This document shows, piece by piece, positions 3,326-56,988 of a DNA stretch of 64,000 nt. The notes under the pieces were generated by a model. That model saw nothing but the letters and a program-made list of their open reading frames with translations. It had not been told where the DNA came from and did no database searches. The position numbers were made by a program, and so were the translations under genes. The stretch's first letter is position 1, and each line of letters begins with the position of its first letter. Origin of the DNA: a virus; the IMG/VR virus record IMGVR_UViG_3300037067_022550. The stretch is one strand, 5' to 3'.

Positions 3326-3480
3326 AGTATAGCCTTTCTTTCGAGGCTTATTCCAAGCCCAGCATTGATAACTACCACGGCAGAATTAATATCTCTGTCG
3401 TGATCCGCCCCACAAGCGGAACATACCCAATGCCTTACCTTGAGCCCGCCCAATCCTGTGGGGCCGGTCAAAGCTCCGCA
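3284..3480 (-). ncRNA. putative omega (right-end) guide RNA of TnpB
   Basis: By the architecture of IS200/605 TnpB systems, the omega RNA overlaps the 3' end of tnpB and ends at the RE boundary. Only about 30 nt separate the tnpB stop from the RE hairpin. This is inferred and not seen directly. Confidence 0.3.
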
Positions 3481-4374
3481 GTCCGAACAGGTCATAGTGG
3501 TCTTTCTTGAATTTACCGGAATTATATTCCTACCGCAGATACTGCCCTTGTAGGTTATAAACTTTGCCAACTGTCCCAACCCAGCTTCCGTTACTGACTT
3601 GCCAAAAATTCCTGCTGCCATACCCTTAAAGTTGTCGTCACTGTAGCAAATGGTCTTGTAGTTTTCCACCAGCTTCCTGCTTATCTTATGGTTACGATCC
3701 AGTCTTCTATTAGCTTGCCTTTCCTGCAACCTTGCTGTCAACGCTTTTCTATGTCCTCTTTGAGCTTGAGCAAGGCGTTCTGCCCCTTTATGAAGCTCTC
3801 TAGGATTTTCGATCTTAGTGCCGTTGGACAAGGTTAGCAAGGTATCAAATCCAGGGTCTATTCCAACAGCAGTATTAGTTTCTTTGACTGTGAAAATATG
3901 TATTGTATCTAACCAAAGGCAGAGATACCAACCGGAAGCTTTCTTAACTATTCTACCGCACTTGATTTCTGCATTTGGCAATTCCTGTTTGACGAAGCGA
4001 ACTTTCTTCAATCCAGGAATACTAATTTTACCGTCCTTTGGTGGATTAATTGGATCTGGAAAGGGAATGGAATTGAACTTGTTGTGTCTTCCCTTGAGAT
4101 GTGGTTTCTTGGCTTGCTTTCTAAAACACTTTTTCCAAGCATCATAAACTTGAGATAGAGTTCCCTGAATAGTATGAGAAGGAATGCCTAGTTTCTTTCC
4201 GTGGTCAGCCAGTAAGTTGTGGAATGTCTTCTCAGAAAAGTAGATATTGTCTTTAGCATTAAGTTCTATTTTTTTAAGACCAAAGTTATATACACCCGTT
4301 AAGTTATTAAGCCATCCGTTTAGTGTTTGCTCTTGCTTCTTGGTTGGTCTAAGTTTTAGGGTTCTTACTATCAT
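3313..4374 (-). CDS. tnpB: TnpB (OrfB) RNA-guided nuclease-family protein
   Basis: 353 aa. C-terminal RuvC-III plus zinc ribbon (CSDCGALTG...HWVCSACGADHDRDINSAVVV). N-terminal OrfB helix-turn-helix-like region. Confidence 0.8.
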   Translation of the reverse strand: MIVRTLKLRPTKKQEQTLNGWLNNLTGVYNFGLKKIELNAKDNIYFSEKTFHNLLADHGKKLGIPSHTIQGTLSQVYDAWKKCFRKQAKKPHLKGRHNKFNSIPFPDPINPPKDGKISIPGLKKVRFVKQELPNAEIKCGRIVKKASGWYLCLWLDTIHIFTVKETNTAVGIDPGFDTLLTLSNGTKIENPRELHKGAERLAQAQRGHRKALTARLQERQANRRLDRNHKISRKLVENYKTICYSDDNFKGMAAGIFGKSVTEAGLGQLAKFITYKGSICGRNIIPVNSRKTTMTCSDCGALTGPTGLGGLKVRHWVCSACGADHDRDINSAVVVINAGLGISLERKAILCVA

Positions 4375-6652: not shown

Positions 6653-6900
6653 TTTATATCTCCTTGTTGTTTTTCTGGATCATATGCTATAGTAATTGAA
6701 TATTTGAATCGTTTAAATAATTCTGTAGTTTTTTCAAGTTCTGTGTCTACATCTTGCCCGGGTTTAAATTTGAAACTTTCCTCATATAATGCAATAGGCT
6801 TTAATATTTTGCCATTATTTTCATCCTTTAGCTTAATCATTATACATCTTGCTTGTGGAATATAAGTAGCATTTAAAATTTTACCTCTTATTTTTTTCAT
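6649..6900 (-). CDS. hypothetical protein
   Basis: 83-aa ORF in an operon-like tiling. Confidence 0.35.
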   Translation of the reverse strand: MKKIRGKILNATYIPQARCIMIKLKDENNGKILKPIALYEESFKFKPGQDVDTELEKTTELFKRFKYSITIAYDPEKQQGDIK

Positions 6901-7695: not shown

Positions 7696-7793
7696 ATTTT
7701 ACTCTCCAATTTATTGACATAATTTAAAAATACAAAATATATTATACATAAAAAAAATAATAATGTATAATATATTTAATAAGGAGAATATTA

Positions 7794-8780
7794 ATGCATC
7801 CAAATTATAAGAATTATGATTATAAAGATCCTCTATTTGTGACTAGTTCAAAAGCATGGTGCTCTGTTTGTAAAAATGAAGATCCTCAAAAACCAACTTG
7901 TACAAACTGTAAGGGAACTGGTTATCAACCGCTAAATCTGAATGGCTTATGGTATCCATCTTCTGGTTTTCTTGTTTGCGGAGGACCTAGTATCAATAAA
8001 TTGCCATATCAAAGATTAAGAGAAAGAGGAATTGTTTCTTTAGCCGTAAATAATGTTGCTGCTTATGTACCAGTAACAGCATTTTGCTTTAGCGATCCAC
8101 AAACTAAATTTCATCACGGATTATTTTTAGATCCAAAATGTTTAACTTTTGCCCCAATCCCAAAATTAAGGCATCATATTGTTGCAAAGTTGCCAAATAA
8201 AAAATTTCAAGGCATGGATGCTAGAATAAGACATTGCCCATCTTCTTTTGGATTTTCTAGGCAAACGACATTTTCTGCAGAAAGCTTTTTAACAAGCGAA
8301 ACTGCATATTGGGGAAGAGGAGGAAAACAACCTGGCAATGACAATCCCTTCCAATGCTTATGCACAATGCTCCTTGGTTTTAGATTAATGCATTATTTAG
8401 GTTGTCCTAGAATATATTTGTTAGGAGTTGATTTTTGGATGGAAGAAGGCAAGCAAAATTATGCTTTTAAACAAGAAAAGACAGCAAGAAATGGGAGATA
8501 TAAAAATGAAAACTCCTATTTAAATGAATTAAAACCAATATTTGATAAAGCAGGATTTGAAGTTTTTAATTGCAACAAAGAATCAAAATGCGATGCTTTT
8601 CAATATGTCCCCTTTGATGAAGCACTAGAAGATTGCAGGGGTGGAGTTCCGATAGAGCCATTTGATACCGAAAATTATTACTCCAAGAGCATTGCCGAGA
8701 AAGACATGAAGGAAAACCCCAAAACGATCAGTATCGCAGAATTAGCCGAAATACAACAAAAATACAAAATGTCATCTTAA
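7794..8780 (+). CDS. hypothetical protein, DUF115/MptE-like (LVCGGPS motif); target of HNH endonuclease insertion
   Basis: AGGAG RBS at 7778. N-terminal CxxC...CxxC and GGPS motif. The 3' end is duplicated at 9752-9814. Confidence 0.45.
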   Translation: MHPNYKNYDYKDPLFVTSSKAWCSVCKNEDPQKPTCTNCKGTGYQPLNLNGLWYPSSGFLVCGGPSINKLPYQRLRERGIVSLAVNNVAAYVPVTAFCFSDPQTKFHHGLFLDPKCLTFAPIPKLRHHIVAKLPNKKFQGMDARIRHCPSSFGFSRQTTFSAESFLTSETAYWGRGGKQPGNDNPFQCLCTMLLGFRLMHYLGCPRIYLLGVDFWMEEGKQNYAFKQEKTARNGRYKNENSYLNELKPIFDKAGFEVFNCNKESKCDAFQYVPFDEALEDCRGGVPIEPFDTENYYSKSIAEKDMKENPKTISIAELAEIQQKYKMSS

Positions 8781-25060: not shown

Positions 25061-25687
25061 TTAAAACAAATCTCCGTCAAATTCTTTGTTTTTCTTTTCT
25101 TTTTTGTTTTTAGCTAAAACCAATTCCTTAGTCTTAACAAAACTTTCCAATAATTTCTTTTTATCTCCCCAATCTCTCATACAACCGCAATCAACTAATG
25201 TTTCAAATACATTTTTGTTCAAAGAACGTCCGCTATTATTAGTTATCAAATCTTCTAAATTTTTATATGGTTGTCTACTAATAATTTCTTTTATAACAAC
25301 ATCCCCTAGTCCTTTTAAAACTGAAAGAGGACGCCTAATTCCACCATTTTCAATTGTATAAACATCTTTGCTTAAATTAATGTCATAAGGGAGTAATTCT
25401 ATCCCATATCTTGGTAAAGAATCCTCATATGGTTCTCTTTTTTCTCTTTGTTGCTCTGACATAACAGAAGACAATAATGAACACATAAATTCTATTGTAT
25501 AATGATTTTTAAGCCATGCTGTTTGATAAGCAAGCATAGCATAGGCTGCCGAATGGCTGTTTGATGTATAAATGCCTAAATCATAATCGTTTACAATTTT
25601 ATAGTTGTGTTGATTAGATTTCATGGTTAAATTATAGGCTTCTTCAACACCTAACGGTTTTATTGATTTTATTTTGCACTTTAGCAT
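25061..25687 (-). CDS. dnaE: DNA polymerase III alpha (DnaE) C-terminal fragment with N-terminal C-intein half (43 aa)
   Basis: Own ATG with AAGGAG RBS. MLKCKIKSIK...IYTSN resembles the split DnaE IntC (MIKIATRKYLGK...ASN). It is followed by SHSAAYAMLAYQTAWLKNHY, which matches the DnaE KSHSAAYA motif. Confidence 0.7.
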   Translation of the reverse strand: MLKCKIKSIKPLGVEEAYNLTMKSNQHNYKIVNDYDLGIYTSNSHSAAYAMLAYQTAWLKNHYTIEFMCSLLSSVMSEQQREKREPYEDSLPRYGIELLPYDINLSKDVYTIENGGIRRPLSVLKGLGDVVIKEIISRQPYKNLEDLITNNSGRSLNKNVFETLVDCGCMRDWGDKKKLLESFVKTKELVLAKNKKEKKNKEFDGDLF

Positions 25688-26783
25688 ATTTTCTCCTTAA
25701 AAATAAATCTTTTTTATTAGAATATATCCATTTTAAGAAACTTATACAAGCTTTTCTTCCCCCCAACAAATATAAATTATAATAAATATTACCATTTTTA
25801 TGTATACTATTATGTATGTGAAATTTAAATTTGCTTTTAATATGACTTAAATCTTCTAAAAATTTAACAGATGCACTTGACAACTGTATTTGGTATCTTC
25901 CACTATTACTTCTATAAATACATCCGTCTCCATCTATCAAACCTCTAAAAAATGAATTAATGAATTTTTTAGGAACACAACCATTATACCTTAATACTTT
26001 TGATTTATTCCTTAATACTCCTAATTTTTTTAAGTCCATAGCAATTTTTTTATTAAACACACAAAGCCTAGCCATATCTTTTGCGTTTGGCATGTTTTTT
26101 CTTCTTGTAGAACAGTTTATATGTGTTATTGGATTACTTCCTCCAATTAAATTTCTTATTTTCTTAAGTATATATCCGTCATTTTTTGTTAATTGTATTC
26201 CAAAACCATCATATTTTTTTATAATATAACCGTCTGTCATAATTAAGCCAAATATATATGCTTTTTCAGAAGAATCTATTTTTTTAAAAAAATCTTCTTT
26301 GTAATGTGTTTGTATTTTGGGTTCTCTTCTTTTAATTCCTCTTTTTTTCAAACACGCATATACTGTTTCTTTTCTTTTAAATCCATATTTTTTGGCAATT
26401 TTATTGGCAACTCCACCATTTATATATTCTTTGATAATCTTTTTTTCAATATCATCTGTAATTTTTTTATTCCAAGAGCATTTTATTGGCAATGGAATTT
26501 TGTTTTTTTTATGAATTCTACATATGGCATAATATTTTGCCCCTGTTTTTTTAGATATTTTAGCCAATGAAATATTGTTACGATAAGCGTAATATGCAAG
26601 ATATTTTAAATATCTTTCTCTTTTTAACATCCATTTATTCTCATTAATTATTCTTCTAATTATTCTTTCTGTTAGTTTTGTTTCTTTTTCTATATTTTTC
26701 ATTTCTTCTTGTCTAAAAAACATAGAACGTATTATTTTTTTTGTTTTTTTATCAACATTTATTTTATTATATGCCATTCTCAT
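25644..26783 (-). CDS. free-standing LAGLIDADG homing endonuclease (two motifs) with N-terminal HTH repeats
   Basis: YIFGLIMTDGYI and RGLIDGDGCI motifs. Lies between the two dnaE halves, in a different frame from both. Confidence 0.75.
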   Translation of the reverse strand: MRMAYNKINVDKKTKKIIRSMFFRQEEMKNIEKETKLTERIIRRIINENKWMLKRERYLKYLAYYAYRNNISLAKISKKTGAKYYAICRIHKKNKIPLPIKCSWNKKITDDIEKKIIKEYINGGVANKIAKKYGFKRKETVYACLKKRGIKRREPKIQTHYKEDFFKKIDSSEKAYIFGLIMTDGYIIKKYDGFGIQLTKNDGYILKKIRNLIGGSNPITHINCSTRRKNMPNAKDMARLCVFNKKIAMDLKKLGVLRNKSKVLRYNGCVPKKFINSFFRGLIDGDGCIYRSNSGRYQIQLSSASVKFLEDLSHIKSKFKFHIHNSIHKNGNIYYNLYLLGGRKACISFLKWIYSNKKDLFLRRKYAKVQNKINKTVRC

Positions 26784-26853
26784 TCTGTTTCCTCTTTTAA
26801 TAGTATATATTCAGCAACATATGCTATTATTCAAAAAGAAACAGATAAAACCT

Positions 26854-29541
26854 TTATTTTATATTTTCTTCATATAAAATATTCATGTCTTTTTCAATAA
26901 TTTCGCTAACAGTATGAGCTTTTCCATCTTCACAAATAAATTTATGATTTAAGGTGCATTTAATTATCATTCCGTTTGATAATTCAATTTCATAAACTTC
27001 TTTTTTACCTGTTTTAAAAACTTTAACAACTTCGTCATCTATTGTATTGCCATCAACATAACTGTCTAAAACAACCTTTATATTACTATTACAAAGTTCT
27101 TCTAATGAATATCTTTTTTTATCAATTTTATTAAAAACTTTGGTTGAACCTAGTAAGCATTCATTGAATCCATATCCTCCAAAATACTGACATAGAGAAA
27201 ACACCCTTTCAGCAATATCCTTTTCAACTCCATGGTTAATGCACCCCTTAATAAACTTATCTTTTAATTTCATTATCTTTTCTGGCTCTTTTTTTCCTAT
27301 ACCTTTTCTTAAAGTATCAGCTTCTGATGCACTGAAGCCAGCCATTTTTATTGAAACTAACATTATTTGTTCCTGAAAAATCATATTGCCATAAGTTTTA
27401 CTAAGCAATTCTTTCATTATTGGATGTATATATTCTACTTGCTTTCTGTTATGCTTATAATCACAATAATCTGTATGGATGTCTGCATTAAGCACCCCTG
27501 GTCTATAAAGAGCATTTGCAACTACTATATCATTAAATGTATCTATTCTTAAATCTCCAATTAATTTGGTCATTCCTGTACTTTCAAGTTGGAATACCCC
27601 TCCTGTATCTCCATTAGTTAGCATATCAAAAACTTTCTGATCATTTGGTTCTAATGAATTAATATCAATGTCTTTATTATGCCTCTTTTTTATTAAGTCT
27701 AAACATTGCTCAACAAGAGTTAGAGTTTTTAATGCAAGAAAATCGAACTTTAGTAATCCCAATTCCTCTACTTCTTTAAGGTTATATTGAGTACAAATTA
27801 CATCTTTAGCTAATCTTAGTGGAACGTGTTGAACTACAGGATCTTTGCAAACAATTATTCCTGCAGGATGAACTCCCGCTGCTGAAAGCTTACCTTCTAT
27901 TTTTTTTGCATAACTAAAAACATCTTTATATTTATCAACATATTCTTTCAAGTTGCTAATATATCTGTTTTTTTTGTATGTAGTAAGTTTATCAATTTCA
28001 ATATTTGGACCATTGGGAATTGATTTGCATATCTCATTGGCAAGCTGTAATGTTTTTTCTCCTGATTCCCAATTGCCCTTAAAATCACCCTTCATGTTTT
28101 CAAAATCATTTCCTATATCTAAAACCTTGCAGACTCTCCTAACAGCGTCTTTTGCCTTCAAACTAGTATATGTTCCTATTCTTGTTGTGCATTCAACTCC
28201 ATATTTATGAGTTAAATATTGAAAAACTTGCTCTTGTTTTGTATAATCAAAATCCAAATCAACATCAGGAGGGCTAACTCTATCTTTATTTAAAAATCTT
28301 GAAAAAAGTAAATTGTATTTTACAGGATCTACGTGGGTAATTCCAAGACAATATAAACATAACGAAGCCACACCACTTCCTCTTCCAGGCCCAGTCCTTA
28401 TCCCTTCTCTTTTAGAGTAGGCAATAACATCCCAAAGTATTAAAAAATATTTTGCATATTTAAGACTTACAATAACATCCCATTCTTCTGCTATCCTTTC
28501 CTCATATTCTGGTTTACCTTTTAAACCCCTATTTACCATACCGTCATCAATTAAACTCTTTAAATATACTTGTTCTGATGATTCTCCAGGTGGCAATTTG
28601 AAATCAGGTAACAAATCTTTTTCAATTTCAATAAGATTATCTTCAATTTTATCAGATATAATAATACTATTGCTTAATAACTCTGGAAGATTTTTATATA
28701 CTTTCTCTAATTCTTCAAAAGGTTTAATATAAAAATCACTAGATTCAAAAGAAAACCTCTTTGGATTTTTAATAGTATCTTTAGTTGCTATACTTAAGAG
28801 AACATCTTGAGCTAAATAATCTTCCTTATCAGCATAATGAGAGTCACATGTAGCTACAGGAAGAATGTGCAGTTCCTTAGCTAATTTATATAACTTATGC
28901 ATAACAATTTTAAATTCACTGGTAGTCTTTTCGTCGTTATATTTGTGAACCATTATTTCAACAAAAAAATCATCACCATATATTTCTTTAAACAATAATA
29001 AGTTTTTTCTAGCAGTTTCCATGTCGTTTTTTAATATATAATGAGCTGCCAAACCATTAATACAAGCAGATCCACAAATAATACCGTCTTTATGCTTCTT
29101 TAACAAATCAACATCAATCCTTGGACGACTATAAAACCCCTTTAAATAGGCCACAGAGCTAAGAGCTATTAAATTCTTATAGCCAACCTTATTTTTAGCT
29201 AATAAGGTCACGTGAAGCCTTTTGTCATCTTTATTCTTAATATTTATATCATCAACTAAATATAATTCTGTTCCCAATATTGGCTTAATCTTTTCTTTTA
29301 TCTCTTCTTTGTTGCCATGATGAACTTTTTGTTCTTTACAAGCATTATAGAACCTATATAAACCAGCACAAGTACCATGATCTGTTAACGCAATTGCTCT
29401 AAAGCGGTTTTTCCTAGCAGTGTTAGCCATATCTTCAGGAGAGCAAAAACCATCTAATAGAGAGAAATAACTATGGCAATGAAGAGGGACATAACCTGCC
29501 CATTGTTTATTTACTGTAGATATAGATGTTTCTTCAGACAT
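26854..29541 (-). CDS. dnaE: DNA polymerase III alpha (DnaE) N-terminal fragment ending in N-intein half (101 aa, 26857-27159)
   Basis: PHP domain HCHSYFSLLDG and pol III alpha core. ...YFGGYGFNE|CLLGSTKV... begins a Hint N-terminal block that runs 101 aa to a stop codon. Confidence 0.8.
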   Translation of the reverse strand: MSEETSISTVNKQWAGYVPLHCHSYFSLLDGFCSPEDMANTARKNRFRAIALTDHGTCAGLYRFYNACKEQKVHHGNKEEIKEKIKPILGTELYLVDDINIKNKDDKRLHVTLLAKNKVGYKNLIALSSVAYLKGFYSRPRIDVDLLKKHKDGIICGSACINGLAAHYILKNDMETARKNLLLFKEIYGDDFFVEIMVHKYNDEKTTSEFKIVMHKLYKLAKELHILPVATCDSHYADKEDYLAQDVLLSIATKDTIKNPKRFSFESSDFYIKPFEELEKVYKNLPELLSNSIIISDKIEDNLIEIEKDLLPDFKLPPGESSEQVYLKSLIDDGMVNRGLKGKPEYEERIAEEWDVIVSLKYAKYFLILWDVIAYSKREGIRTGPGRGSGVASLCLYCLGITHVDPVKYNLLFSRFLNKDRVSPPDVDLDFDYTKQEQVFQYLTHKYGVECTTRIGTYTSLKAKDAVRRVCKVLDIGNDFENMKGDFKGNWESGEKTLQLANEICKSIPNGPNIEIDKLTTYKKNRYISNLKEYVDKYKDVFSYAKKIEGKLSAAGVHPAGIIVCKDPVVQHVPLRLAKDVICTQYNLKEVEELGLLKFDFLALKTLTLVEQCLDLIKKRHNKDIDINSLEPNDQKVFDMLTNGDTGGVFQLESTGMTKLIGDLRIDTFNDIVVANALYRPGVLNADIHTDYCDYKHNRKQVEYIHPIMKELLSKTYGNMIFQEQIMLVSIKMAGFSASEADTLRKGIGKKEPEKIMKLKDKFIKGCINHGVEKDIAERVFSLCQYFGGYGFNECLLGSTKVFNKIDKKRYSLEELCNSNIKVVLDSYVDGNTIDDEVVKVFKTGKKEVYEIELSNGMIIKCTLNHKFICEDGKAHTVSEIIEKDMNILYEENIK

Positions 29542-34406: not shown

Positions 34407-34552
34407 ATTTTATTCTCCTTTTAAGAATATTTACATATTATTCTTACTTCATTTAAATTTAACCTTTTTATTTGGTTATATTTATTAAATATTTCTTTTT
34501 ATTGAAATATTATTAACTAAGAATATGGCAAAATCCTTTATTTAATAAAAAG

Positions 34553-34624
34553 AGCACCTTGAGGGAATCGAACCCCCGTCTGAAAGTTTGCAGCTTTCTG
34601 CCTGAACCACTCGACCAAAGGTGC
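34553..34624 (-). tRNA. tRNA-Cys (GCA)
   Basis: Cloverleaf fits. Anticodon stem GAAAG/CTTTC with loop CTGCAAA, and T-arm GGGGGTTCGATTCCC. Confidence 0.65.
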
Positions 34625-34631
34625 TTGAAAA

Positions 34632-34710
34632 TGGTGGGGGAGAAGGGAGTTGAACCCATATTTTCGGATTTTCAGTCCGTTTCCGATTGACCGCGTTGGA
34701 ACACTCCCCC
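34632..34710 (-). tRNA. tRNA-Phe (GAA), somewhat irregular D-arm
   Basis: Acceptor GGGGGAG/CTCCCCC, anticodon loop CTGAAAA, T-loop TTCAACT, and CCA encoded. Confidence 0.55.
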
Positions 34711-34724
34711 ATTACAAGTAAAAC

Positions 34725-34800
34725 TGGTAGTGTCGGTGGGATTCAAACCCACAATTTCAAGCTTCGGAGGCTTGTGCCCTATTCATTAGGCTACAACACT
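34725..34800 (-). tRNA. tRNA-Arg (CCG)
   Basis: Anticodon stem CAAGC/GCTTG with loop CTCCGAA; T-arm GTGGGTTTGAATCCCAC. Confidence 0.65.
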
Positions 34801-34803
34801 ATT

Positions 34804-34884
34804 GGTAGCCCTGACAGGATTTGAACCTGCATTTTCATTTCCATTATGCACTTGACGGGTAGAAACCGCCGCCACTACAGGGCT
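34804..34884 (-). tRNA. tRNA, anticodon undetermined (irregular anticodon/variable region)
   Basis: Acceptor AGCCCTG/CAGGGCT, T-arm GCAGGTTCAAATCCTGT and CCA are clear. No clean 5-7-5 anticodon arm was found. Confidence 0.45.
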
Positions 34885-34891
34885 ATAAAAA

Positions 34892-34982
34892 TGGTGGCGT
34901 CGGATGGATTTGAACCACCAGCGTTTAGCCATAGGCACCTGATTTACAGTCAGGCGGTTTCAGCCAATTCACCCACGACGCC
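34892..34982 (-). tRNA. tRNA-Tyr (GTA), class II long variable arm
   Basis: Anticodon stem CCTGA/TCAGG with loop CTGTAAA; long variable arm; T-arm GGTGGTTCAAATCCATC. Confidence 0.65.
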
Positions 34983-41893: not shown

Positions 41894-42934
41894 ATGGAAC
41901 AATTATTTACAAGAAAAGAATTTAGAGAAAAAGTTTTTCAAAGAGACGGCAATAAATGCGTAATATGCAATGAAACCAAAAATCTGGATGCTCATCATAT
42001 TGTTGATCGTAGACTTTGGGATGATGGAGGGTACTATCTTTCCAATGGCGTAACCTTGTGTTCAACTCATCATATTCAAGCAGAGCAAACGGTATTAAGT
42101 TGTAATAATGTCAGAGATGCTGCTAAAATTAAAACGATACTGCTGCCGCCTACTTTTTATAATGATGAACAAATAGACAAATGGGGTAACATAATACTTC
42201 CAAATGGCCAAAGATTTATAGGAGAACTTTTCTTTGATGAATCTGTTCACAAAATATTAGAACTTGGAGGGGTTTTAAATCAATTTACTAAGTTCATAAA
42301 ATACCCCAAAACCCAACACCTGCCTTGGTCTCCTGGAATAACTAAAGATGATAGGGTTATGAAAATTCAAGACTTAGAAAAAAACTTTGGGGGCAAGGAA
42401 GTTGTTATAAGTGAAAAAGTTGATGGGGAAAACACAACATGCTACAACAATTATATTCATGCTCGTTCAATTGATGGCAGAAATCATGTTTCTAGAAATT
42501 GGATCAAGAATTTACACTCCAAAATAAAATATGACATACCTGAAGGATGGAGAATTTGCGGTGAAAACCTTTATGCAAAACATACAATAGCATATTCTAA
42601 TCTTCCATCTTATTTCTTGGTTTTTGCAATATTTAATGAAAAAAACACTTGTTTGAGCTTTTTAGAAACAGTTGAATATTGTAAATTGCTGGGTTTAAGT
42701 TGGGTACAACCAAAATTTATTATGAAATATGATGAAAAATTTATAAAAGAAAACTGTTATACCGGCAATTCAATGTATGGGGGAGAACAAGAAGGTTATG
42801 TGATTAGATTGTCTTCTGAAATTCCATTTACAAATTATAAAAATAGTATTGCCAAATATGTTAGAAAGAATCATGTTCAAACAAATCAAAATTGGATGTA
42901 TCAACCAATAATAAAAAACAAATTGTCAATTTAA
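41894..42934 (+). CDS. HNH-motif / Rnl2-like RNA ligase fusion protein
   Basis: N-terminus CVICNETKNLDAHHIV...CSTHH (HNH). Ligase motif I EKVDGEN, motif III-like RICGENLYAKH, and motif IV EGYVIR. Confidence 0.6.
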   Translation: MEQLFTRKEFREKVFQRDGNKCVICNETKNLDAHHIVDRRLWDDGGYYLSNGVTLCSTHHIQAEQTVLSCNNVRDAAKIKTILLPPTFYNDEQIDKWGNIILPNGQRFIGELFFDESVHKILELGGVLNQFTKFIKYPKTQHLPWSPGITKDDRVMKIQDLEKNFGGKEVVISEKVDGENTTCYNNYIHARSIDGRNHVSRNWIKNLHSKIKYDIPEGWRICGENLYAKHTIAYSNLPSYFLVFAIFNEKNTCLSFLETVEYCKLLGLSWVQPKFIMKYDEKFIKENCYTGNSMYGGEQEGYVIRLSSEIPFTNYKNSIAKYVRKNHVQTNQNWMYQPIIKNKLSI

Positions 42935-45002: not shown

Positions 45003-45077
45003 TGGTGGACCCAGGGAGAATCGAACTCCCACTAAAAGCTTGCAAAGCTCCCGTGCTACCATTATCACTATGAGCCC
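45003..45077 (-). tRNA. tRNA-Ala (UGC), solitary
   Basis: G3:U70 pair, anticodon loop TTTGCAA, T-arm GGGAGTTCGATTCTCCC, and CCA encoded. Confidence 0.65.
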
Positions 45078-53425: not shown

Positions 53426-53896
53426 TTATCTAACTCTATTTTTGTGAGAATCTTTATGACAACGTAAACAAAGCGTTCTATAATTTTCTAAACCACAGCA
53501 TCCACCACCTTGTGATACAGGAATTATGTGGTCTGCTTCCCAAAATACATAATTTTTAGTATGCCACGGACCCCAATATTTCTTGAACTCAAAATAATTC
53601 CAAGACAACCTTTTTATGTTTATAGCCTCTTTTCTAATTTCGTTGGTGTCAATTCCACACAAAGAGCATATTCCGTGGTCTCTATTAAAAACATAATAAC
53701 TAACATATGAGCCAGTATACCTAATATTGGCTTCTTCTTGGCAAGCATCTGAACAATACTTAAGCCCTTTGCGACCTTTTCCACCACACCAAGCACAAGA
53801 ATCTGGATACCTAATTAGATCTTTTAACGGCTTCAAAAACCTTTGAAATCTCAACTTGTATAGAATATCTTTTACTTCTGGACGTGGAGTAATCAT
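53426..53896 (-). CDS. HNH endonuclease
   Basis: ADHIIPVSQGG...NYRTLCLRCH plus upstream CxxC pairs. Confidence 0.6.
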   Translation of the reverse strand: MITPRPEVKDILYKLRFQRFLKPLKDLIRYPDSCAWCGGKGRKGLKYCSDACQEEANIRYTGSYVSYYVFNRDHGICSLCGIDTNEIRKEAINIKRLSWNYFEFKKYWGPWHTKNYVFWEADHIIPVSQGGGCCGLENYRTLCLRCHKDSHKNRVR

Positions 53897-53941
53897 ATGT
53901 TCATTATACTACAAAACATAAATAATTGATATTTTTTAAAT

Positions 53942-54018
53942 TGGTGGAACCAGTGGAAGTTGAATCCACACTTACAGGGTGCAGACCTGTCGTGCTATCC
54001 GTTGAACACTATGGCCCC
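53942..54018 (-). tRNA. tRNA-Ala (UGC) with G3:U70; unusual C at position 33
   Basis: Acceptor GGGGCCA/TGGTTCC, anticodon stem ACAGG/CCTGT with loop TCTGCAC, and T-arm GTGGATTCAACTTCCAC. Confidence 0.55.
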
Positions 54019-54028
54019 AAAATTAAAC

Positions 54029-54105
54029 TGGAGCGGGAAACGGGAGTCGAACCCGTACCTGAACTTAGGCAAAGTCCCATGCTAACCATTGAACACCATT
54101 CCCGC
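54029..54105 (-). tRNA. tRNA-Gly (GCC)
   Basis: Anticodon loop TTGCCTA; T-arm ACGGGTTCGACTCCCGT. Confidence 0.6.
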
Positions 54106-54114
54106 ACTAAAAAT

Positions 54115-54197
54115 TGGTGGGCGGAGTGGGACTCGAACCCACGACGCTTACGCAACAGGGTGTAGACCTGTCCTCCTAGCCACTAGAGTACCCGCCC
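54115..54197 (-). tRNA. tRNA, anticodon UAC (Val?) with C33 and an extended variable region
   Basis: Acceptor GGGCGGG/CCCGCCC, anticodon arm ACAGG-TCTACAC-CCTGT, variable region about 12 nt, and T-arm GTGGGTTCGAGTCCCAC. Confidence 0.45.
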
Positions 54198-54250
54198 AAA
54201 AATTGTTTTATCATTATGTATTATACAAAAAAACATTTATTTCTTCATGA

Positions 54251-54324
54251 AGCCCAAGGAGGGATTTGAACCCCCAACATTCTCAGTACGAAAGAGATGT
54301 TCTACCAATTAGAACTACTTGGGC
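54251..54324 (-). tRNA. tRNA-Thr (CGU)
   Basis: D-arm GTTC/GAAC, anticodon loop TTCGTAC, T-arm GGGGGTTCAAATCCCTC; CCA not encoded. Confidence 0.55.
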
Positions 54325-54331
54325 AAAAAAA

Positions 54332-54406
54332 TGGAGCCGCAAATTGGATTTGAACCAATGACCCCGATCTTACCAAGATCGTATTCTGCCCCTGAACTAT
54401 TGCGGC
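54332..54406 (-). tRNA. tRNA-Thr (GGU)
   Basis: Anticodon stem CGATC/GATCG with loop TTGGTAA. Confidence 0.6.
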
Positions 54407-54432
54407 ATTAAATTATTTCATTTCAATTTGTA

Positions 54433-54469
54433 GCTGAAGTCTGGAATTGAACCCACAAGCATCTTCAGC
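54433..54469 (-). other. tRNA-like minihelix / truncated tRNA remnant (acceptor-like 7-bp stem + T-arm-like loop)
   Basis: GCTGAAG-(TCTGGAATTGAACCCACAAGCAT)-CTTCAGC; too short for a full tRNA. Confidence 0.3.
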
Positions 54470-54474
54470 AAAAT

Positions 54475-54549
54475 TGGTACTCCCATCGGGACTCGAACCC
54501 GCTTCACCAGATTAAAAGTCTGGTACTTCACCATAAAAGCTTTGGGAGC
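54475..54549 (-). tRNA. tRNA-Lys (UUU)
   Basis: Anticodon stem CCAGA/TCTGG with loop CTTTTAA; G1:U72. Confidence 0.6.
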
Positions 54550-54555
54550 AAAAAA

Positions 54556-54631
54556 TGGTGATTGCGGGGGGACTTGAACCCCCAGCGTCCAGGGTAAGAA
54601 CCTGGCACTCTGCCAATTGAGTTACGCAACC
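54556..54631 (-). tRNA. tRNA-Lys (CUU)
   Basis: Anticodon stem CCAGG/CCTGG with loop TTCTTAC; T-arm GGGGGTTCAAGTCCCCC. Confidence 0.65.
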
Positions 54632-54636
54632 GAAAA

Positions 54637-54714
54637 TGGTGGGTGCTGTGGGATTTTGACCCACGACTCCCAGGGTAAAAACCTGGTACTCTGTTCATGC
54701 TGAGTTAAGCACCC
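54637..54714 (-). tRNA. tRNA-Lys (UUU), paralog of preceding gene
   Basis: Same anticodon stem, with loop TTTTTAC. Confidence 0.65.
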
Positions 54715-54721
54715 GAAAAAT

Positions 54722-54795
54722 TGGAGCTGGCGGCGGGTACGAGACCGCATAATCCTCATTACAAGAGAGGCACATAACCTTTCTGTCACGCCAGC
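54722..54795 (-). tRNA. tRNA-Thr (UGU), irregular T-arm
   Basis: Perfect acceptor GCTGGCG/CGCCAGC; anticodon loop CTTGTAA; T-loop region non-canonical. Confidence 0.45.
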
Positions 54796-54799
54796 ATAA

Positions 54800-55429
54800 T
54801 TAATAACTTTTTTCACTTTGATATCTAAGTTTTCTATAAAATCTTCCGTTTCCTCTGTTCTTTCCTTTATATGTTGATGTTTGCATATCACAATTTCCGC
54901 ATATTAATCTTAAATTTAAAATACTCCAATTAGTAGAATTACCGTCTATGTGGTCTAACACTAAAGGAACTTCTTTTCCCATCCATTCTGTTGTTCCGCA
55001 TATTGTGCATTTTCCACCTTTAGTTTCTTTTAAATATCTTCTTGCAACTTTAGAATTAAAAATAGGATTTAAAAAAGCATTTCCTTTTGATTCTATTGCT
55101 TTCTTTTTTAAACTCCACTCAAAATCCTTTTGACATTTAATAGTACAATATTTTCTATTGGAAAATAATAATTTTTTACCACAAAATAAACAATTAGATG
55201 GTTCTTCTCCGTGTCTTCTTACTCCTTTGTTATTAAATGAAGCAGCACAAGAATGATTACAAAAAGTTAAACGTCTTTTTTTATATGATAAAACAGAATT
55301 GCAGAATTTACATATTTTGGGATTTGAAATATAATTTTCTCTAAACTTTTTAAATCTTTCTTGATTTTTAATATTAGATTTTTCTGATCCAATCTTACCA
55401 GCTTCCGAACAACTCATTCCTTTTCTCAT
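54800..55429 (-). CDS. HNH homing endonuclease embedded in tRNA array
   Basis: CTICGTTEWMGKEVPLVLDHIDGNSTNWSILNLRLICGNCD plus several CxxC. Confidence 0.6.
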   Translation of the reverse strand: MRKGMSCSEAGKIGSEKSNIKNQERFKKFRENYISNPKICKFCNSVLSYKKRRLTFCNHSCAASFNNKGVRRHGEEPSNCLFCGKKLLFSNRKYCTIKCQKDFEWSLKKKAIESKGNAFLNPIFNSKVARRYLKETKGGKCTICGTTEWMGKEVPLVLDHIDGNSTNWSILNLRLICGNCDMQTSTYKGKNRGNGRFYRKLRYQSEKSY

Positions 55430-55518
55430 TTTTGAACTCCTTATCAGTTGTTAATATACAACTGCTATATGGTTCAAAAATGATTTGTGGCTAACCTGCT
55501 TTTATTTTTCAACAAAAA

Positions 55519-55592
55519 TGGAGCGTCCCAACGGATTTGAACCGTCTCCCAGACCTTGGAAGGGTCTAATGCTACCGTTACACCAGGGACGC
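55519..55592 (-). tRNA. tRNA-Gly (UCC)
   Basis: Anticodon stem AGACC/GGTCT with loop CTTCCAA. Confidence 0.6.
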
Positions 55593-55618
55593 ATCTTTTC
55601 ATTATACAACAAAATAAT

Positions 55619-55697
55619 TGGAGCACCTAATGGGATTTGAACCCATACCATCAGCTTGGAAGGCTGTCATGCTAGATCCGTTGAACACCATAGGTGC
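55619..55697 (-). tRNA. tRNA-Gly (UCC), second copy with longer D-region
   Basis: Anticodon stem CAGC/GCTG with loop CTTCCAA; T-arm ATGGGTTCAAATCCCAT. Confidence 0.5.
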
Positions 55698-55706
55698 ATT
55701 TAAAAA

Positions 55707-55791
55707 TGGTAGGGGGGCGGTATTTATCCAATTATGTGCATTTAAAGCCTCTTGGTTATGAGCCAAGCGATAAAAGCTTTACCTACCCCGC
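55707..55791 (-). tRNA. aberrant tRNA-like element with CAU anticodon arm (possible pseudo-tRNA)
   Basis: Clean anticodon arm CTTGG-CTCATAA-CCAAG, but no canonical T-arm and an acceptor with a 5' extension. Confidence 0.3.
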
Positions 55792-55956
55792 TATAAACTT
55801 TTCAGGGATTTCACGAAATGTTCCACTGTTGGCGACCCGACCGCCATCTTCCTGGTGACCCAGGCGTGCTCCATACACCACGTAGCGTCTATCCTTTTTA
55901 GGTTACTGCCCTTTAGTTCGTCAACTTTCAGGCACACCTCTTGCAAGATTTCAAAT

Positions 55957-56033
55957 TGGTAACGGGGGCCGGATTTGAACCGGCGACCTACAGGTTATGA
56001 GCCTGCCGAGCTACCAGGCTGCTCCACCCCGTA
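55957..56033 (-). tRNA. initiator tRNA-fMet (CAU)
   Basis: Near-identity to bacterial tRNA-fMet (GGGGTGGAGCAGCCTGGTAGCTCG...CTCATAACC...GGTTCAAATCCGGCCCCCG) with a 1:72 mismatch. Confidence 0.8.
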
Positions 56034-56041
56034 ATATTAAA

Positions 56042-56118
56042 TGGTAGCAGGGATGGGACTTGAACCCACAACCTACGGGTTATGAGCCCGTGAAGCTTCC
56101 TATTGCTAGCACCCTGCA
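56042..56118 (-). tRNA. tRNA-Met or tRNA-Ile2 (CAU)
   Basis: Anticodon stem CGGG/CCCG with loop CTCATAA; T-arm GTGGGTTCAAGTCCCAT. Confidence 0.6.
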
Positions 56119-56129
56119 AATCAGTAAAA

Positions 56130-56205
56130 TGGTGCCGGGGAGGGGAATTGAACCCCTGATCTTTCGGGTATGAGCCGAACGTCTTGCACACTCGACCACC
56201 CCGGC
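56130..56205 (-). tRNA. tRNA-Met or tRNA-Ile2 (CAU)
   Basis: Anticodon stem TTCGG/CCGAA with loop CTCATAC; T-arm AGGGGTTCAATTCCCCT. Confidence 0.6.
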
Positions 56206-56320
56206 AAAAATATTCAATTATCAAAGAACTGCAAATCCATTTGTAAACTTTACCGTTAGGGAACTTTTTAAATATATTTTTCCAATTAGAACAAAATATT
56301 CCCGAAAGGCAACTAAAAGC

Positions 56321-56348
56321 AAAAAAGCCTCGCATTATCTGCGAGGCT
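56321..56348 (-). terminator. rho-independent terminator of the ncRNA transcript
   Basis: Minus strand reads GCCTCGCAGATAATGCGAGGC followed by TTTTTT. Confidence 0.7.
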
Positions 56349-56774
56349 GCTCTACTAAATTCTACTTTATCTGTTTGGGTTACAGCAAAGCAGAGAGCCC
56401 CGCGAGAGAACCGGCTGTGGTTCCCTTCGTTGCTTTCCCTTTTACTGTAACCATTAAGTACATTGAATGCTTCACCTATTTATTAATTGTAATTAAACTA
56501 AAGCAATCAGGGATGCTTTCGCACCATCAGCCGTACACTTACAACTGTCCCAACTGCACTAACCTTACTCTGCTGACCTACCTTGCTGAACTCTGCCTGT
56601 CAACCTACTCTGACTTGCACCGCCTTACTTTTCAACTGCGGGTTGCTAGGCATCCCTGTTGTCGCTTGGCGTTTTCTTTCATCTTCAAATACAGGTTGTC
56701 AACACCATTACATGTTGTCATCAGCCCCTTTTTCGATATTTGAAGACAATCATCTTTTCTTTACTAATTGTTAT
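56321..56774 (-). ncRNA. structured GC-rich non-coding RNA of about 450 nt (family unknown; GOLLD/ROOL-like context)
   Basis: No credible ORF on either strand. GC far above background. Consensus promoters immediately upstream and a terminator downstream on the minus strand. Long-range complementarity CAGGGATGC...GCATCCCTG. Confidence 0.5.
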
Positions 56775-56780
56775 ACTACA

Positions 56781-56809
56781 TTTATACAACAAAATCCTTT
56801 ATTTGTCAA
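56781..56809 (-). promoter_or_regulatory. sigma70-type promoter TTGACA-N17-TATAAA (cassette copy 2)
   Basis: Minus strand reads TTGACAAATAAAGGATTTTGTTGTATAAA with an upstream A/T UP element. Confidence 0.6.
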
Positions 56810-56942
56810 GATTTATTTTAAAATATTTTCAAATCAAATAATAATATAATTGATGGCGAATCTTATTTTTATGACCTTCTTTCTTATCTCTGGGAACGGT
56901 CAAGCCAGCGACCATCAATATTATTTACTCCTTTTGCTTTCA

Positions 56943-56970
56943 TTTATACCACAAAGCAATTCTTTGTCAA
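56943..56970 (-). promoter_or_regulatory. sigma70-type promoter TTGACA-N16-TATAAA (cassette copy 3)
   Basis: Minus strand reads TTGACAAAGAATTGCTTTGTGGTATAAAT. Confidence 0.55.
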
Positions 56971-56988
56971 GATTTATTTTAAAATATT

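Follow-up and report, generated by a model that had tools for sequence, protein, structure and literature searches.

The minus-strand region from position 53942 to 56205 of this viral sequence raises the question of whether its tRNA genes, several of which depart from the canonical form, make up a functional array or a decaying one. By "the window" we mean the whole 64,000-nt stretch of DNA that was analyzed. Its proteins include a tail tube, Pol III alpha, RecA, an RNA ligase (gene at 41894-42934), and a major-vault-like protein that has 44 to 47% matches in the 462- to 735-kb phage records LR756500/501. We conclude that the source is a huge, AT-rich phage (30% G+C). No close relative was found in phage databases, and the sole close comparator array that we found is on a metagenome contig, L079, which has a syntenic array with the same 14 anticodons and no HNH gene at the corresponding site. 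Orthologous genes of the window and L079 are 77 to 88% identical with covarying stems, and the gene order of the two arrays differs.

Gene content of the array

ARAGORN finds 13 tRNA genes on the minus strand of 53942-56205, with the same anticodons that had been assigned by eye in the original prediction. All 13 are above the gathering threshold of Rfam model RF00005 (30.0 to 66.8 bits versus a threshold of 29 bits), which was our criterion for a canonical cloverleaf. Thr-UGU (40.3 bits), which standard ARAGORN does not call but which was recovered by Rfam and in the permissive -mt mode, brings the number of genes above this threshold to 14. The predicted array is thus borne out by ARAGORN and Rfam as 14 genes plus a fifteenth tRNA-like element, and no anticodon was in conflict with the by-eye assignments. 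The predicted trio of tRNA-Lys genes (two UUU and one CUU) is present, although the order given for them was wrong and is in fact UUU, CUU, UUU, and the UAC tRNA that had been noticed for its long variable region is Val-UAC, in which ARAGORN shows this region to be 13 nt. Gly-GCC and Ala-UGC are scarcely above the Rfam threshold (30.0 and 34.0 bits versus 29). The discriminator bases match the anticodons (A73 in Lys, Val, Ala, and the CAU genes and U73 in Gly and Thr), and CCA is already encoded in most of the genes. We conclude that 53942-56205 is a real tRNA cluster, which is an ordinary kind of feature with conserved non-canonical details. The features are as follows.

56130..56205, minus strand: tRNA(CAU) no. 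1, elongator-type (ARAGORN; Rfam 66.8 bits)
56042..56118, minus strand: tRNA(CAU) no. 2, initiator-like (ARAGORN; Rfam 31.8 bits)
55957..56033, minus strand: tRNA(CAU) no. 3, initiator-like (ARAGORN; Rfam 60.5 bits)
55793..55956, minus strand: G+C-rich spacer, 164 nt (composition, partial L079 alignment)
55707..55792, minus strand: CAU no. 4, putative non-canonical initiator-derived tRNA-like gene (L079 comparison, family alignment)
55619..55697, minus strand: tRNA-Gly(UCC) a, 79 nt, discriminator U73, 82% identity with the L079 orthologue (ARAGORN; Rfam 51.1 bits)
55519..55592, minus strand: tRNA-Gly(UCC) b (ARAGORN; Rfam 54.3 bits)
54800..55429, minus strand: HNH gene, 209 aa, free-standing (PHROG)
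54722..54795 (Rfam bounds 54725-54795), minus strand: tRNA-Thr(UGU) (Rfam 40.3 bits, E 1.9e-6; ARAGORN -mt)
54637..54714, minus strand: tRNA-Lys(UUU) a (ARAGORN; Rfam 57.7 bits)
54556..54631, minus strand: tRNA-Lys(CUU) (ARAGORN; Rfam 64.6 bits)
54475..54549, minus strand: tRNA-Lys(UUU) b, 6-bp anticodon stem, short variable region (ARAGORN; Rfam 49.5 bits)
54429..54469, minus strand: minihelix-like tRNA remnant (sequence reading and fold)
54332..54406, minus strand: tRNA-Thr(GGU) (ARAGORN; Rfam 61.5 bits)
54251..54324, minus strand: tRNA-Thr(CGU), CCA not encoded, U31xU39 (ARAGORN; Rfam 58.4 bits)
54115..54197, minus strand: tRNA-Val(UAC), C33, 13-nt variable region (ARAGORN; Rfam 52.2 bits)
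54029..54105, minus strand: tRNA-Gly(GCC), U37 (ARAGORN; Rfam 30.0 bits)
53942..54018, minus strand: tRNA-Ala(UGC), C33, G3:U70 alanine identity pair (ARAGORN; Rfam 34.0 bits)
53426..53896, minus strand: second HNH endonuclease gene (Pfam PF01844 E 9e-8; PHROG HNH E 1.4e-10)

The 164-nt spacer is 49 to 53% GC, has no Rfam match, and does not fold significantly (z-score of -1.17). Its 5' half aligns partially to L079, and judging from this alignment it is probably related to the tRNA-like RNA at L079 6713-6866 but has degenerated. A tmRNA (a tRNA-like domain with G3:U70 and a tag reading frame) was considered for the spacer and upstream RNA module and rejected, as ARAGORN reports none there and Rfam gives no tmRNA match at threshold; permuted tmRNA calls appear only at lowered ARAGORN thresholds and are implausible. 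The minihelix at 54429-54469 consists of an acceptor stem (GCUGAAG/CUUCAGC) and a T-arm-like hairpin; the D and anticodon arms are missing. It has a fold z-score of -2.1, and no counterpart was found in L079.

These two elements could be taken to mean that all of the non-canonical members (55707-55792, Thr-UGU, Gly-GCC, Ala-UGC, the spacer, and the minihelix) are pseudogenes of a decaying, rearranging array. The evident remnant at 54429-54469 and the degenerate spacer are consistent with this, as are the low or absent predictor scores of the odd members, a gene order unlike that of L079, and the acceptor- and T-stem deletions in the window's CAU no. 4. In contrast, identity elements are intact, CAU no. 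4 is conserved in L079 with a compensatory change, and the C33 loops of Ala and Val are kept while their stems covary (see below). We consider general decay unlikely; only the minihelix and the spacer are probably explained by it.

The four CAU genes

Based on their sequences, the four CAU genes comprise three that resemble initiators and a single one, 56130-56205, that resembles an elongator (Met, possibly Ile2). Position 1:72, which is unpaired in initiators, is a U1xU72 mismatch in both 56042-56118 and 55957-56033. The former is the only CAU gene with the G:C triplet at 29-31:39-41 (three G:C pairs), and it has an irregular D stem; it is 87% identical to L079 6432-6506, which shares the odd D arm. 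The latter has A11:U24 and carries A29:U41 where the triplet would begin with a G:C pair, an anticodon arm found exactly in 18 IMG/VR contigs, and is ~90% identical to an enterobacterial initiator over 79 nt. The elongator-type gene has a paired G1-C72, the anticodon loop CUCAUAC, and an encoded CCA; it shares 82% identity with the orthologue in L079, and the stems covary. The original prediction had one initiator and two further CAU tRNAs (Met or Ile2). The first of these assignments (55957-56033) holds, as does Met or Ile2 for 56130-56205, but 56042-56118 looks like an initiator rather than an elongator.

If 56130-56205 were tRNA-Ile2, host TilS would convert C34 to lysidine and the tRNA would read ATA, which is a frequent codon here (38 per 1000 codons and 44% of Ile codons). 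It is the only CAU gene called by ARAGORN that has a paired 1:72, and ARAGORN finds no Ile tRNA in the window, which covers only part of the genome. The E. coli-type Ile2 determinants for TilS and IleRS are C4:G69, C5:G68, A37, and A38, and tRNA-Ile2 determinants vary among bacterial lineages. A37 is present in 56130-56205, whereas G4:C69, G5:C68, and C38 differ, so the E. coli-type set is absent. Its partial BLAST matches include both tRNA-Met and tRNA-Ile annotations; one is to a phage gene annotated as tRNA-Ile, but equal or better ones are to tRNA-Met. In addition, related phages decode ATA by a dedicated Ile(UAU) tRNA (L084/85; LR756501). An Ile2 identity for this gene is improbable in our judgment.

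The fourth CAU element, 55707-55792, has no Rfam match at E<=10 and no standard ARAGORN call; ARAGORN -mt alone reports a 56-nt CAU fragment within it. As had been predicted, it combines a perfect CAU anticodon arm (CTTGG-CTCATAA-CCAAG) with the lack of a canonical T arm. Its anticodon stem has U29:A41 instead of G:C, its D stem is GGUA/UAUC, its D loop (AAGCUUU) lacks GG, its T loop is AUAAAUA, and its long variable region contains GCACAUAAUUGG. The acceptor stem has a weak A1-U72 pair and C3xC70, and CCA is encoded. This element is nevertheless the best-conserved member of the array, since it is 88% identical to L079 6622-6709, which is above the value for any canonical member, with a compensatory D-stem change from G12-C23 to U12-A23. 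The window copy lacks one pair of the T stem and one nucleotide of the acceptor that the L079 copy retains, with C3xC70 as the result, and thus may be weakened.

CAU no. 4 scores 75.8 bits against family model R1, which represents initiator-like tRNAs with a conserved GCGCAUAAGUGG insertion; all contigs in which they were seen are viral or metagenomic. The family alignment has 98.7% of cells paired and 5 pairs that change on both sides, and the observed score was reached by 0 of 500 shuffles. A11:U24 is present in 7 of 8 family members (the window copy has G11.U24), and position 1:72 in the other members is U1xU72 or A1xA72. The other members also have a normal T loop and are located in arrays like ordinary tRNAs. 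The anticodon arm of CAU no. 4 is shared exactly with 54 viral contigs. Its conservation relative to the syntenic array and its membership in a virus-only family strongly suggest that CAU no. 4 is not junk, and the alignment indicates that in the lineage of the window and L079 this family member has lost the D-loop/T-loop elbow.

Because the elbow loss is conserved in two lineages and the initiator-type anticodon arm remains perfect and exactly shared in those 54 contigs, CAU no. 4, like the remaining tRNA-like pieces, might be thought of as a decoy or regulator rather than a translation substrate, such as a bait for initiator-tRNA-cleaving nucleases or a signal in the processing of a polycistronic transcript. 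A passage of PMC10264068 cites the cleavage of initiator tRNA by VapC-type toxins. We regard such a role as highly unlikely. The retained acceptor stem, A73, and encoded CCA would fit charging, and the other family members, with their normal T loops and positions within arrays, look like tRNAs.

Anticodon loops, codon usage, and HNH genes

Position 33 is nearly invariant in tRNAs, and C is rare there.

The original prediction of C33 in two tRNAs was correct: exactly two genes of the array have it, Ala-UGC (loop UCUGCAC) and Val-UAC (loop UCUACAC). Gly-GCC has U37 instead of a purine, and the remaining 11 called genes have U33 and a purine at 37. The 7-nt Val(UAC) loop is identical in L079 and in another contig, L082, with covarying stems, and the L079 orthologue of Ala(UGC) also has C33. 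Among tRNAs of the same array type, 13 of 60 have C33; for the remaining viral loci that we fetched, the count is 8 of 314. Because C33 is kept in L079 despite covariation of the stems, these comparisons argue that it is selected in Ala and Val and is not decay. Phage tRNAs with changed anticodon loops have been proposed to resist anticodon nucleases (PMC10264068). U33C has no effect on cleavage by the K. lactis gamma-toxin (PMC2275089), and therefore C33 is not a general protection.

The elbow (D-loop GG plus T-loop UUCRANY) is absent from Lys-UUU a as well as from CAU no. 4. Lys-UUU a has no D-loop GG and has the T loop UCAAAAU, and its L079 orthologue (77% identical) shows the same loss. 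The T loop of Thr-UGU is also non-canonical (UCUCGUAC), and the rest of the genes are normal in this respect.

The codon usage of the 62 ORFs of the window (GC 30.2%, GC3 19.5%) agrees in part with the earlier suggestion that the Lys, Thr, and Gly decoders of the array compensate for AAA/AAG-rich codon usage. Lys is the commonest amino acid (10.9%) and AAA is the top codon (86.8 per 1000 codons), which fits, but neither Thr (4.4%) nor Gly (5.8%) is enriched. A purely compensatory array would only top up codons that are overused relative to the host, with its odd features due to neutral drift. The Lys and AAA values would be expected from this, and GGA, ACA, and GCA, the A-ending codons that lead their respective families, are matched by U34 tRNAs. 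It does not account for the unremarkable Thr and Gly content, for the decoders of the rare codons ACG (2.6 per 1000) and ACC (4.8 per 1000), which are retained in both the window and L079 arrays, or for three to four CAU genes at an ATG usage of 21 per 1000. Nor do the C33 loops and the architecture of CAU no. 4 look neutral, as they are conserved between diverged arrays, and a mycobacteriophage study saw no codon-frequency signal for phage tRNAs (PMC10264068). We therefore find compensation as the sole explanation rather unlikely.

The HNH gene that had been placed within the array is confirmed as ORF 54800-55429, which matches PHROG phrog_10822 (HNH; E 4.3e-21) and falls below the Pfam HNH_3 cutoff (18.1 versus 24.8 bits, E 0.002). 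It lies between Gly(UCC) b and Thr(UGU), and Thr(UGU) begins 5 nt past its stop codon. The gap between Gly-UCC and Thr-UGU is 16 nt with no ORF in L079 and 723 nt including the HNH ORF in the window, and the Thr-UGU genes of the two arrays are 57% identical, which is at most an indirect hint at co-conversion of the flanks. In each of the six other contig groups that we examined, HNH homologues adjoin Thr tRNA genes; those in L082, L084/85, L087, L088/89, and L090 are 52 to 60% identical, and L084/85 and L090 have an identical type of HNH-to-Thr(UGU) junction. The second HNH gene is directly downstream of the array.

Proposed function and comparison with known systems

Based on the sequence comparisons, we consider it quite probable that the best overall explanation combines a tRNA operon, conserved odd features, and invasion by an HNH gene. 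The region would serve a huge AT-rich phage as a functional tRNA operon, with 14 tRNAs (one elongator and two initiator-like CAU, Gly-UCC x2, Thr-UGU/GGU/CGU, Lys-UUU x2, Lys-CUU, Val-UAC, Gly-GCC, and Ala-UGC) and, as a fifteenth member, an elbow-less initiator-derived tRNA-like RNA. It would be transcribed from the minus strand, as are the flanking genes, from A/T-rich TATAAT-type promoters, and the transcript would then be cut into single tRNAs; a simple sigma-70 scan found no minus-strand promoter within the array. During infection, the products would lessen the dependence of the phage on the host tRNA pool by supplying decoders for the dominant A-ending codons AAA, GGA, ACA, GCA, and GUA and extra initiator tRNA. 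Selection rather than decay would account for three lineage-conserved traits (the C33 of Val and Ala, the missing elbow of Lys-UUU a and CAU no. 4, and the enlarged variable regions), which would most likely alter recognition by host tRNA-targeting nucleases or modification enzymes. We count the RNA ligase gene in favor of this anti-nuclease idea. The embedded HNH gene would be a selfish element that encodes a homing endonuclease. Its lineage would be one that occupies sites next to Thr tRNA genes within the tRNA arrays of phages, and the gene would have entered the array of the window after the split from the L079 lineage.

A more specific hypothesis, which is possible but which we hold only tentatively, is that a clade of huge phages carries a dedicated set of several divergent initiator tRNAs, including the virus-only GCGCAUAAGUGG family, whose elbow is lost here although it stays under purifying selection, together with C33 Val/Ala/Thr tRNAs, and that these are specialized for initiating and elongating under attack on host tRNAs or with phage initiation factors. 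If true, the specialized initiator and C33 tRNAs would add a tRNA-level component to the "translation redirection" suggested for huge phages. In the literature that we searched on these topics, we found no description of an array that combines C33 Val/Ala/Thr tRNAs with initiator-like CAU genes in tandem, of which one is elbow-less, and to our knowledge this array type has not been described so far.

Some mitochondrial-type tRNAs lack the D-loop/T-loop interaction, and mitochondria use dedicated factors. CAU no. 4 and Lys-UUU a resemble these tRNAs in having lost G18G19 and T54-psi55-C56 together while keeping the acceptor and anticodon arms, but they are phage genes used with bacterial-type translation, with no sign of dedicated mitochondrial-style factors. 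Features shared with bacterial initiator tRNA-fMet are the CAU anticodon, A73, the G:C-rich end of the anticodon stem, the 1x72 mismatch of CAU no. 2 and no. 3, and A11:U24 in CAU no. 3 and the CAU no. 4 family. In contrast to tRNA-fMet, the mismatch is U1xU72 rather than C1xA72, the full G:C triplet is present only in CAU no. 2, and CAU no. 4 has A1-U72, an insertion of ~20 nt, and no elbow.

As many as 67 tRNAs are found in huge phages (Al-Shayeb et al. 2020, PMC7162821), and the window agrees with the tRNA complements of such phages in its large genome of origin, translation-related genes, nearby RNA ligase gene, and many tRNAs diverging from host tRNAs, as well as in the adjacent major-vault-like protein, which matches the huge-phage records at 44 to 47%. 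The tRNAs of cluster C1 mycobacteriophages (PMC10264068) likewise occur in many-tRNA arrays and have substitutions at conserved anticodon-loop positions. Those changes map to known VapC cleavage sites of a known host, whereas the position changed here is 33, which that paper does not discuss. The homing endonuclease SegB is located inside the T4 tRNA cluster (PMC2330249), which is also a free-standing gene among tRNA genes that is absent in a relative. SegB differs in being a GIY-YIG enzyme for which cleavage and homing were shown, while both are inferred for the HNH enzyme here, and the HNH lineage is distinct in consistently adjoining Thr tRNA genes.

Gene calls and codon usage of the tRNA array

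By ARAGORN, the minus strand of 53942-56205 has 13 tRNA genes, and the Rfam tRNA scores of all 13 (30.0 to 66.8 bits) are above the gathering score of 29. A 14th gene, at 54725-54795, is found by a more permissive Rfam scan (40.3 bits; E value, 1.9e-6) and is called Thr(UGU) by the permissive mode of ARAGORN. It begins 5 nt past the stop codon of an open reading frame (ORF) embedded in the array (54800-55429), which matches HNH endonuclease families. The 15th element, CAU no. 4 (55707-55792), has no Rfam call even at an E value of ≤10 and none by standard ARAGORN; it has the perfect anticodon arm CTTGG-CTCATAA-CCAAG without a canonical T arm, just as the original prediction had described it. 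The anticodons in that prediction, which were assigned by eye, are exactly those that ARAGORN gives for its 13 genes, and the HNH gene that it placed within the array and its two tRNAs with C at position 33 are also borne out. The gene calls of the original prediction are accurate.

C33 is present in exactly two array genes, Ala-UGC (loop UCUGCAC) and Val-UAC (loop UCUACAC; variable region, 13 nt), while Gly-GCC has U37. The discriminator base is A73 in the Lys, Val, Ala, and CAU genes and U73 in every Gly and Thr gene, the Ala gene carries G3:U70, and these elements agree with the names given by anticodon. For the C33 loops, a shift of the anticodon to CUA or CUG was considered and ruled out, since the loops have 7 nt, their stems are closed, and the Val and Ala discriminators and identity pairs fit. 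CCA is encoded in 14 of the 15 elements, the exception being Thr-CGU.

The original prediction had explained the Lys, Thr, and Gly decoders as compensation for AT-rich codon usage. In the window ORFs, Lys is indeed the most frequent amino acid (10.9%), AAA is the top codon (86.8 per 1,000), and GGA, ACA, and GCA are each the top codon of their own family and are matched by U34 tRNAs. In contrast, Thr and Gly are not enriched, the rare codons ACG and ACC (2.6 and 4.8 per 1,000) have dedicated tRNAs, and ATG usage (21 per 1,000) does not demand four CAU genes. On these grounds, codon compensation would be at best part of the story. Outside the array, the window has the following:

34552-34982 and 45003-45077, minus strand: further tRNAs, namely Tyr-GUA, Arg-CCG, Phe-GAA, Cys-GCA, and a second Ala-UGC (canonical, U33)
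34803-34884, minus strand: tRNA-like gene in the second tRNA cluster, called by Rfam only (32.3 bits)

The phage therefore has Ala-UGC in two copies, one with U33 and the other with C33. Arg-CCG decodes CGG, the rarest codon of the window (0.3 per 1,000).

A comparison array and the CAU genes

A metagenome scan with a pattern from CAU no. 4 found an 8.2-kb contig, Ga0247841_10018578 (L079), with tRNAs in near-identical order to those of the window: three CAU genes, an uncalled CAU no. 4 homologue, two Gly-UCC genes, Thr-UGU, two Lys-UUU genes, Thr-GGU, Thr-CGU, Lys-CUU, Val-UAC, Gly-GCC, and Ala-UGC. The two have RNA genes alone in common, and the rest of L079 has no protein-coding similarity to the 64-kb window. 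CAU no. 1 (82% identical), CAU no. 2 (87%), and the first-named copies (a) of Gly-UCC (82%) and Lys-UUU (77%) are clear orthologues, and other members are about 60 to 70% identical; the identity of CAU no. 4, 88%, is the highest in the array. In the phage collection, a near-identity search with the array gave no match, and a distant search gave initiator-type tRNA matches only and no syntenic array. An exact scan of IMG/VR for the irregular D arm of CAU no. 2 gave 0 hits, as did one for the 5' half of Gly-UCC a. An identical 2.25-kb piece of the array is present in Logan assembly SRR18595300.

The window copy of CAU no. 4 shares with that of L079 the acceptor 5' strand, the entire anticodon arm, the sequence of the variable region, and an unusual T loop (GGAUAAAUACC). 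From L079 to the window, its D stem shows a compensatory change of G12-C23 to U12-A23, plus A11-U24 to G11·U24. The window copy has also lost one T-stem nucleotide and one acceptor 3'-strand nucleotide, which results in a C3×C70 mismatch, so it is probably somewhat weakened. Since both copies lack the elbow motifs (D-loop GG and T-loop UUC), the elbow loss is older than the divergence of the window and L079, and the sequence stayed conserved despite this loss.

Ten loci with eight distinct sequences make up the CAU no. 4 family (IMG/VR contigs L018, L027, L029, and L075 to L078; metagenome contigs L079 and L080; and the window), which is defined by a conserved (C)GCGCAUAAGUGG stretch from the variable loop to the T loop. 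Its initiator hallmarks are A11:U24, an unpaired or weak 1:72 (U1×U72, A1×A72, or A1-U72), and an anticodon stem with a G:C-rich end. In the family alignment, 98.7% of cells are paired, 5 pairs are changed on both sides, and none of 500 shuffles scores as high as the alignment itself. This covariation supports the predicted cloverleaf, with no signal from the T stem, which is invariant across members and for which GCG..GG/CC.CGC and GUGG/CCGC are both candidate pairings. The family covariance model gives the window copy 75.8 bits and ranks canonical initiator-like tRNAs (62 to 66 bits) and window CAU no. 3 (58.5 bits) below the family. It recovered no additional members from 29 sources, and the family motifs had 0 hits when 185,579 genomes of bacteria and archaea were scanned twice. 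At permissive thresholds, Rfam has nothing for CAU no. 4, the 164-nt spacer, or the upstream region. In folding energy, neither CAU no. 4 nor the spacer nor the X element of L079 is significantly better than its shuffles, and thermodynamics alone is therefore uninformative. We take the uncallable CAU no. 4 to be a member of a virus-only, initiator-derived family.

Other tRNA-like elements were also seen. The L079 counterpart (6713-6866) of 55793-55956 is a tRNA-like RNA of ~155 nt with an initiator-style acceptor stem (UGCAGAG/CUCUGCU) plus ACCA and a T arm, in which an insert of ~110 nt takes the place of the D and anticodon arms; the window copy retains just the 5' half and is found on the opposite side of CAU no. 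4. Also in L079, another uncalled element, closed by GGUCUG/CAGAUC and with CCACCA at its end, lies in the 100 nt that separate Gly-GCC from Ala-UGC (7735-7834). The tRNA-like gene at 34803-34884 has good acceptor, D, and T arms, and its anticodon arm is replaced by 28 nt with no convincing anticodon stem. Within these 28 nt, GUGCAUAAUG is similar to the motif GCGCAUAAGU of the CAU no. 4 family and to AUGCAUAC of the L079 X element.

CAU no. 3 (55957-56033) has U1×U72, A11:U24, and A29:U41 instead of the first G:C pair; it is ~90% identical to an enterobacterial initiator, and its exact anticodon arm is present in 18 viral contigs. CAU no. 2 (56042-56118) has U1×U72, all three G:C pairs, and an irregular D stem that is kept in L079. 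Thus, three of the four CAU genes look initiator-like. Among CAU nos. 1 to 3, 1:72 is paired only in CAU no. 1 (56130-56205), which could be elongator Met or Ile2, the choice that the original prediction had offered: it does not carry E. coli-type Ile2 determinants, its similarity matches are split between Met and Ile annotations, and ATA is decoded by Ile(UAU) in related phages. The 735-kb phage LR756501 (L086, 7870-8213) has three tandem initiator-like CAU genes (C1×U72 with a long 7-bp variable arm, U1×U72, and C1×A72) followed directly by Ile-UAU. Divergent initiator-like tRNA sets therefore recur in distant huge phages.

Conserved tRNA oddities and the upstream region

The Ala and Val orthologues in L079 also have C33, and their anticodon stems covary relative to those of the window (for Val, ACAGG/CCUGT to ACUGG/CCAGU); the loop UCUACAC is the same in Val genes of three lineages. 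C33 is present in 13 of 60 tRNAs in arrays of this type versus 8 of 314 in the other viral loci fetched. The elbow motifs are absent from Lys-UUU a and from its L079 orthologue, and normally class I tRNAs (Lys, Thr, Val, and CAU) often have long variable regions in these arrays. The conservation of these features across arrays indicates that they are selected, and we regard them as conserved traits, not defects. It has been proposed that loop changes let phage tRNAs escape anticodon nucleases (PMC10264068). Such escape would be a reason for the selection, and one further gene is noted alongside, 11 kb from the array:

41894-42934, plus strand: RNA ligase gene (Pfam PF09414; E value, 2.3e-26)

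In T4, RNA ligases repair tRNA-Lys after its cleavage by PrrC, an anticodon nuclease of the host (PMC10264068), which is relevant here in that the array has three Lys tRNAs. However, cleavage by one yeast anticodon nuclease was unaffected by U33C (PMC2275089), which counts against protection as a general role.

Arrays of tRNA genes are a familiar feature of phages, and this one by itself adds little. The main value is the comparative result: features that predictors flag as defects (C33, missing elbows, enlarged variable regions, and the uncallable CAU gene) are conserved between diverged arrays, and automated pseudogene calls would therefore undercount functional phage tRNAs. These tRNAs are testable candidates for evasion of host tRNA-targeting immunity or for phage-specific initiation.

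Upstream of the array, also on the minus strand, block A (56849-56989) is 88% identical to L079 5643-5783. In this block, a TTGACA/TATAAA-type promoter precedes a hairpin-rich RNA of ~70 nt whose closing stem, UUGAUGG/CCAUCAA, is UUGCUGG/CCAGCAA in L079, a compensatory change; the block has no Rfam match. The minus strand of 56312-56832 is 44 to 50% G+C versus a background of 30%, with no ORF of ≥40 amino acids. It includes a second conserved promoter region (56755-56832), a 40-nt block (56640-56679) that is 97.5% identical to L079, and block B (56312-56481), at 93% identity above every tRNA and with 0 hits in an exact scan of IMG/VR. Block B has an ORF of 27 codons (56380-56463; MYLMVTVKGKATKGTTAGSLAGLSALL) that differs from that of L079 only by one synonymous, one Thr-to-Lys, and one stop-to-stop change, and a terminator lies downstream (56326-56348). 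Block B may encode a small protein or act as a dual-function RNA. For this ORF-bearing RNA and the tRNA-like pieces, a tmRNA in one or two pieces was considered and ruled out, as no predictor supports it and a tRNA-like domain with G3:U70 is absent. TATAAT boxes are also present:

55601-55606, 54220-54225, and 53903-53908, minus strand: TATAAT boxes after UUG/UGU, inside or just after the array

The box that lies between Gly-UCC a and b (UUGUUGUAUAAUG) has a conserved counterpart at L079 6958-6970. A sigma-70 consensus scan did not call these boxes because there is no fitting -35 box.

Phage context and HNH genes

The window is 30.2% G+C, has 55 of its 62 long ORFs on the minus strand, and encodes a phage tail tube protein, RecA, an SbcC-like ATPase, a DNA methylase, and the RNA ligase. 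It also carries mobile elements:

25644-29541, minus strand: Pol III alpha gene with an intein-like segment at its end and a LAGLIDADG ORF beside it
3313-4374, minus strand: TnpB/Cas12f-like ORF

Upstream of the array is an 810-amino-acid major-vault/SPFH-like protein with metagenomic homologues in the thousands. Its phage-database matches are only in LR756500, LR756501, and LR756503 (44 to 47% identity), uncultured phage records of 462 kb and 735 kb; there are no tRNAs within 12 kb of the homologues in LR756500 and LR756501, and an IMG/VR protein-anchored search with this protein gave no match.

The embedded HNH protein has 327 homologues, and its site in L079 is a junction of only 16 nt. In six further contig groups that were checked, homologues at 52 to 60% identity are all in tRNA arrays beside Thr genes. 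The positions, and that of a second HNH gene in the window, are as follows:

L084/85 and L090: homologue directly upstream of Thr-UGU, as in the window
L082 and L087: homologue ~80 nt downstream of Thr-UGU
L088/89: homologue between Gly-UCC and Thr-GGU
53426-53896 of the window: second HNH gene, after the array

This consistent association with Thr tRNAs marks out a putative tRNA-array-specific homing-endonuclease lineage, and the HNH gene appears to behave as a homing endonuclease specialised on tRNA arrays.

Huge phages have up to 67 tRNAs and genes that ligate cleaved tRNAs (PMC7162821). Based on this precedent, the phage proteins, and the matches of the 810-amino-acid protein, we conclude that the array is a real tRNA operon of a huge phage, into which the gene of a putative homing endonuclease has inserted. 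It is a known kind of feature, and its HNH gene is analogous to SegB of T4 (PMC2330249).
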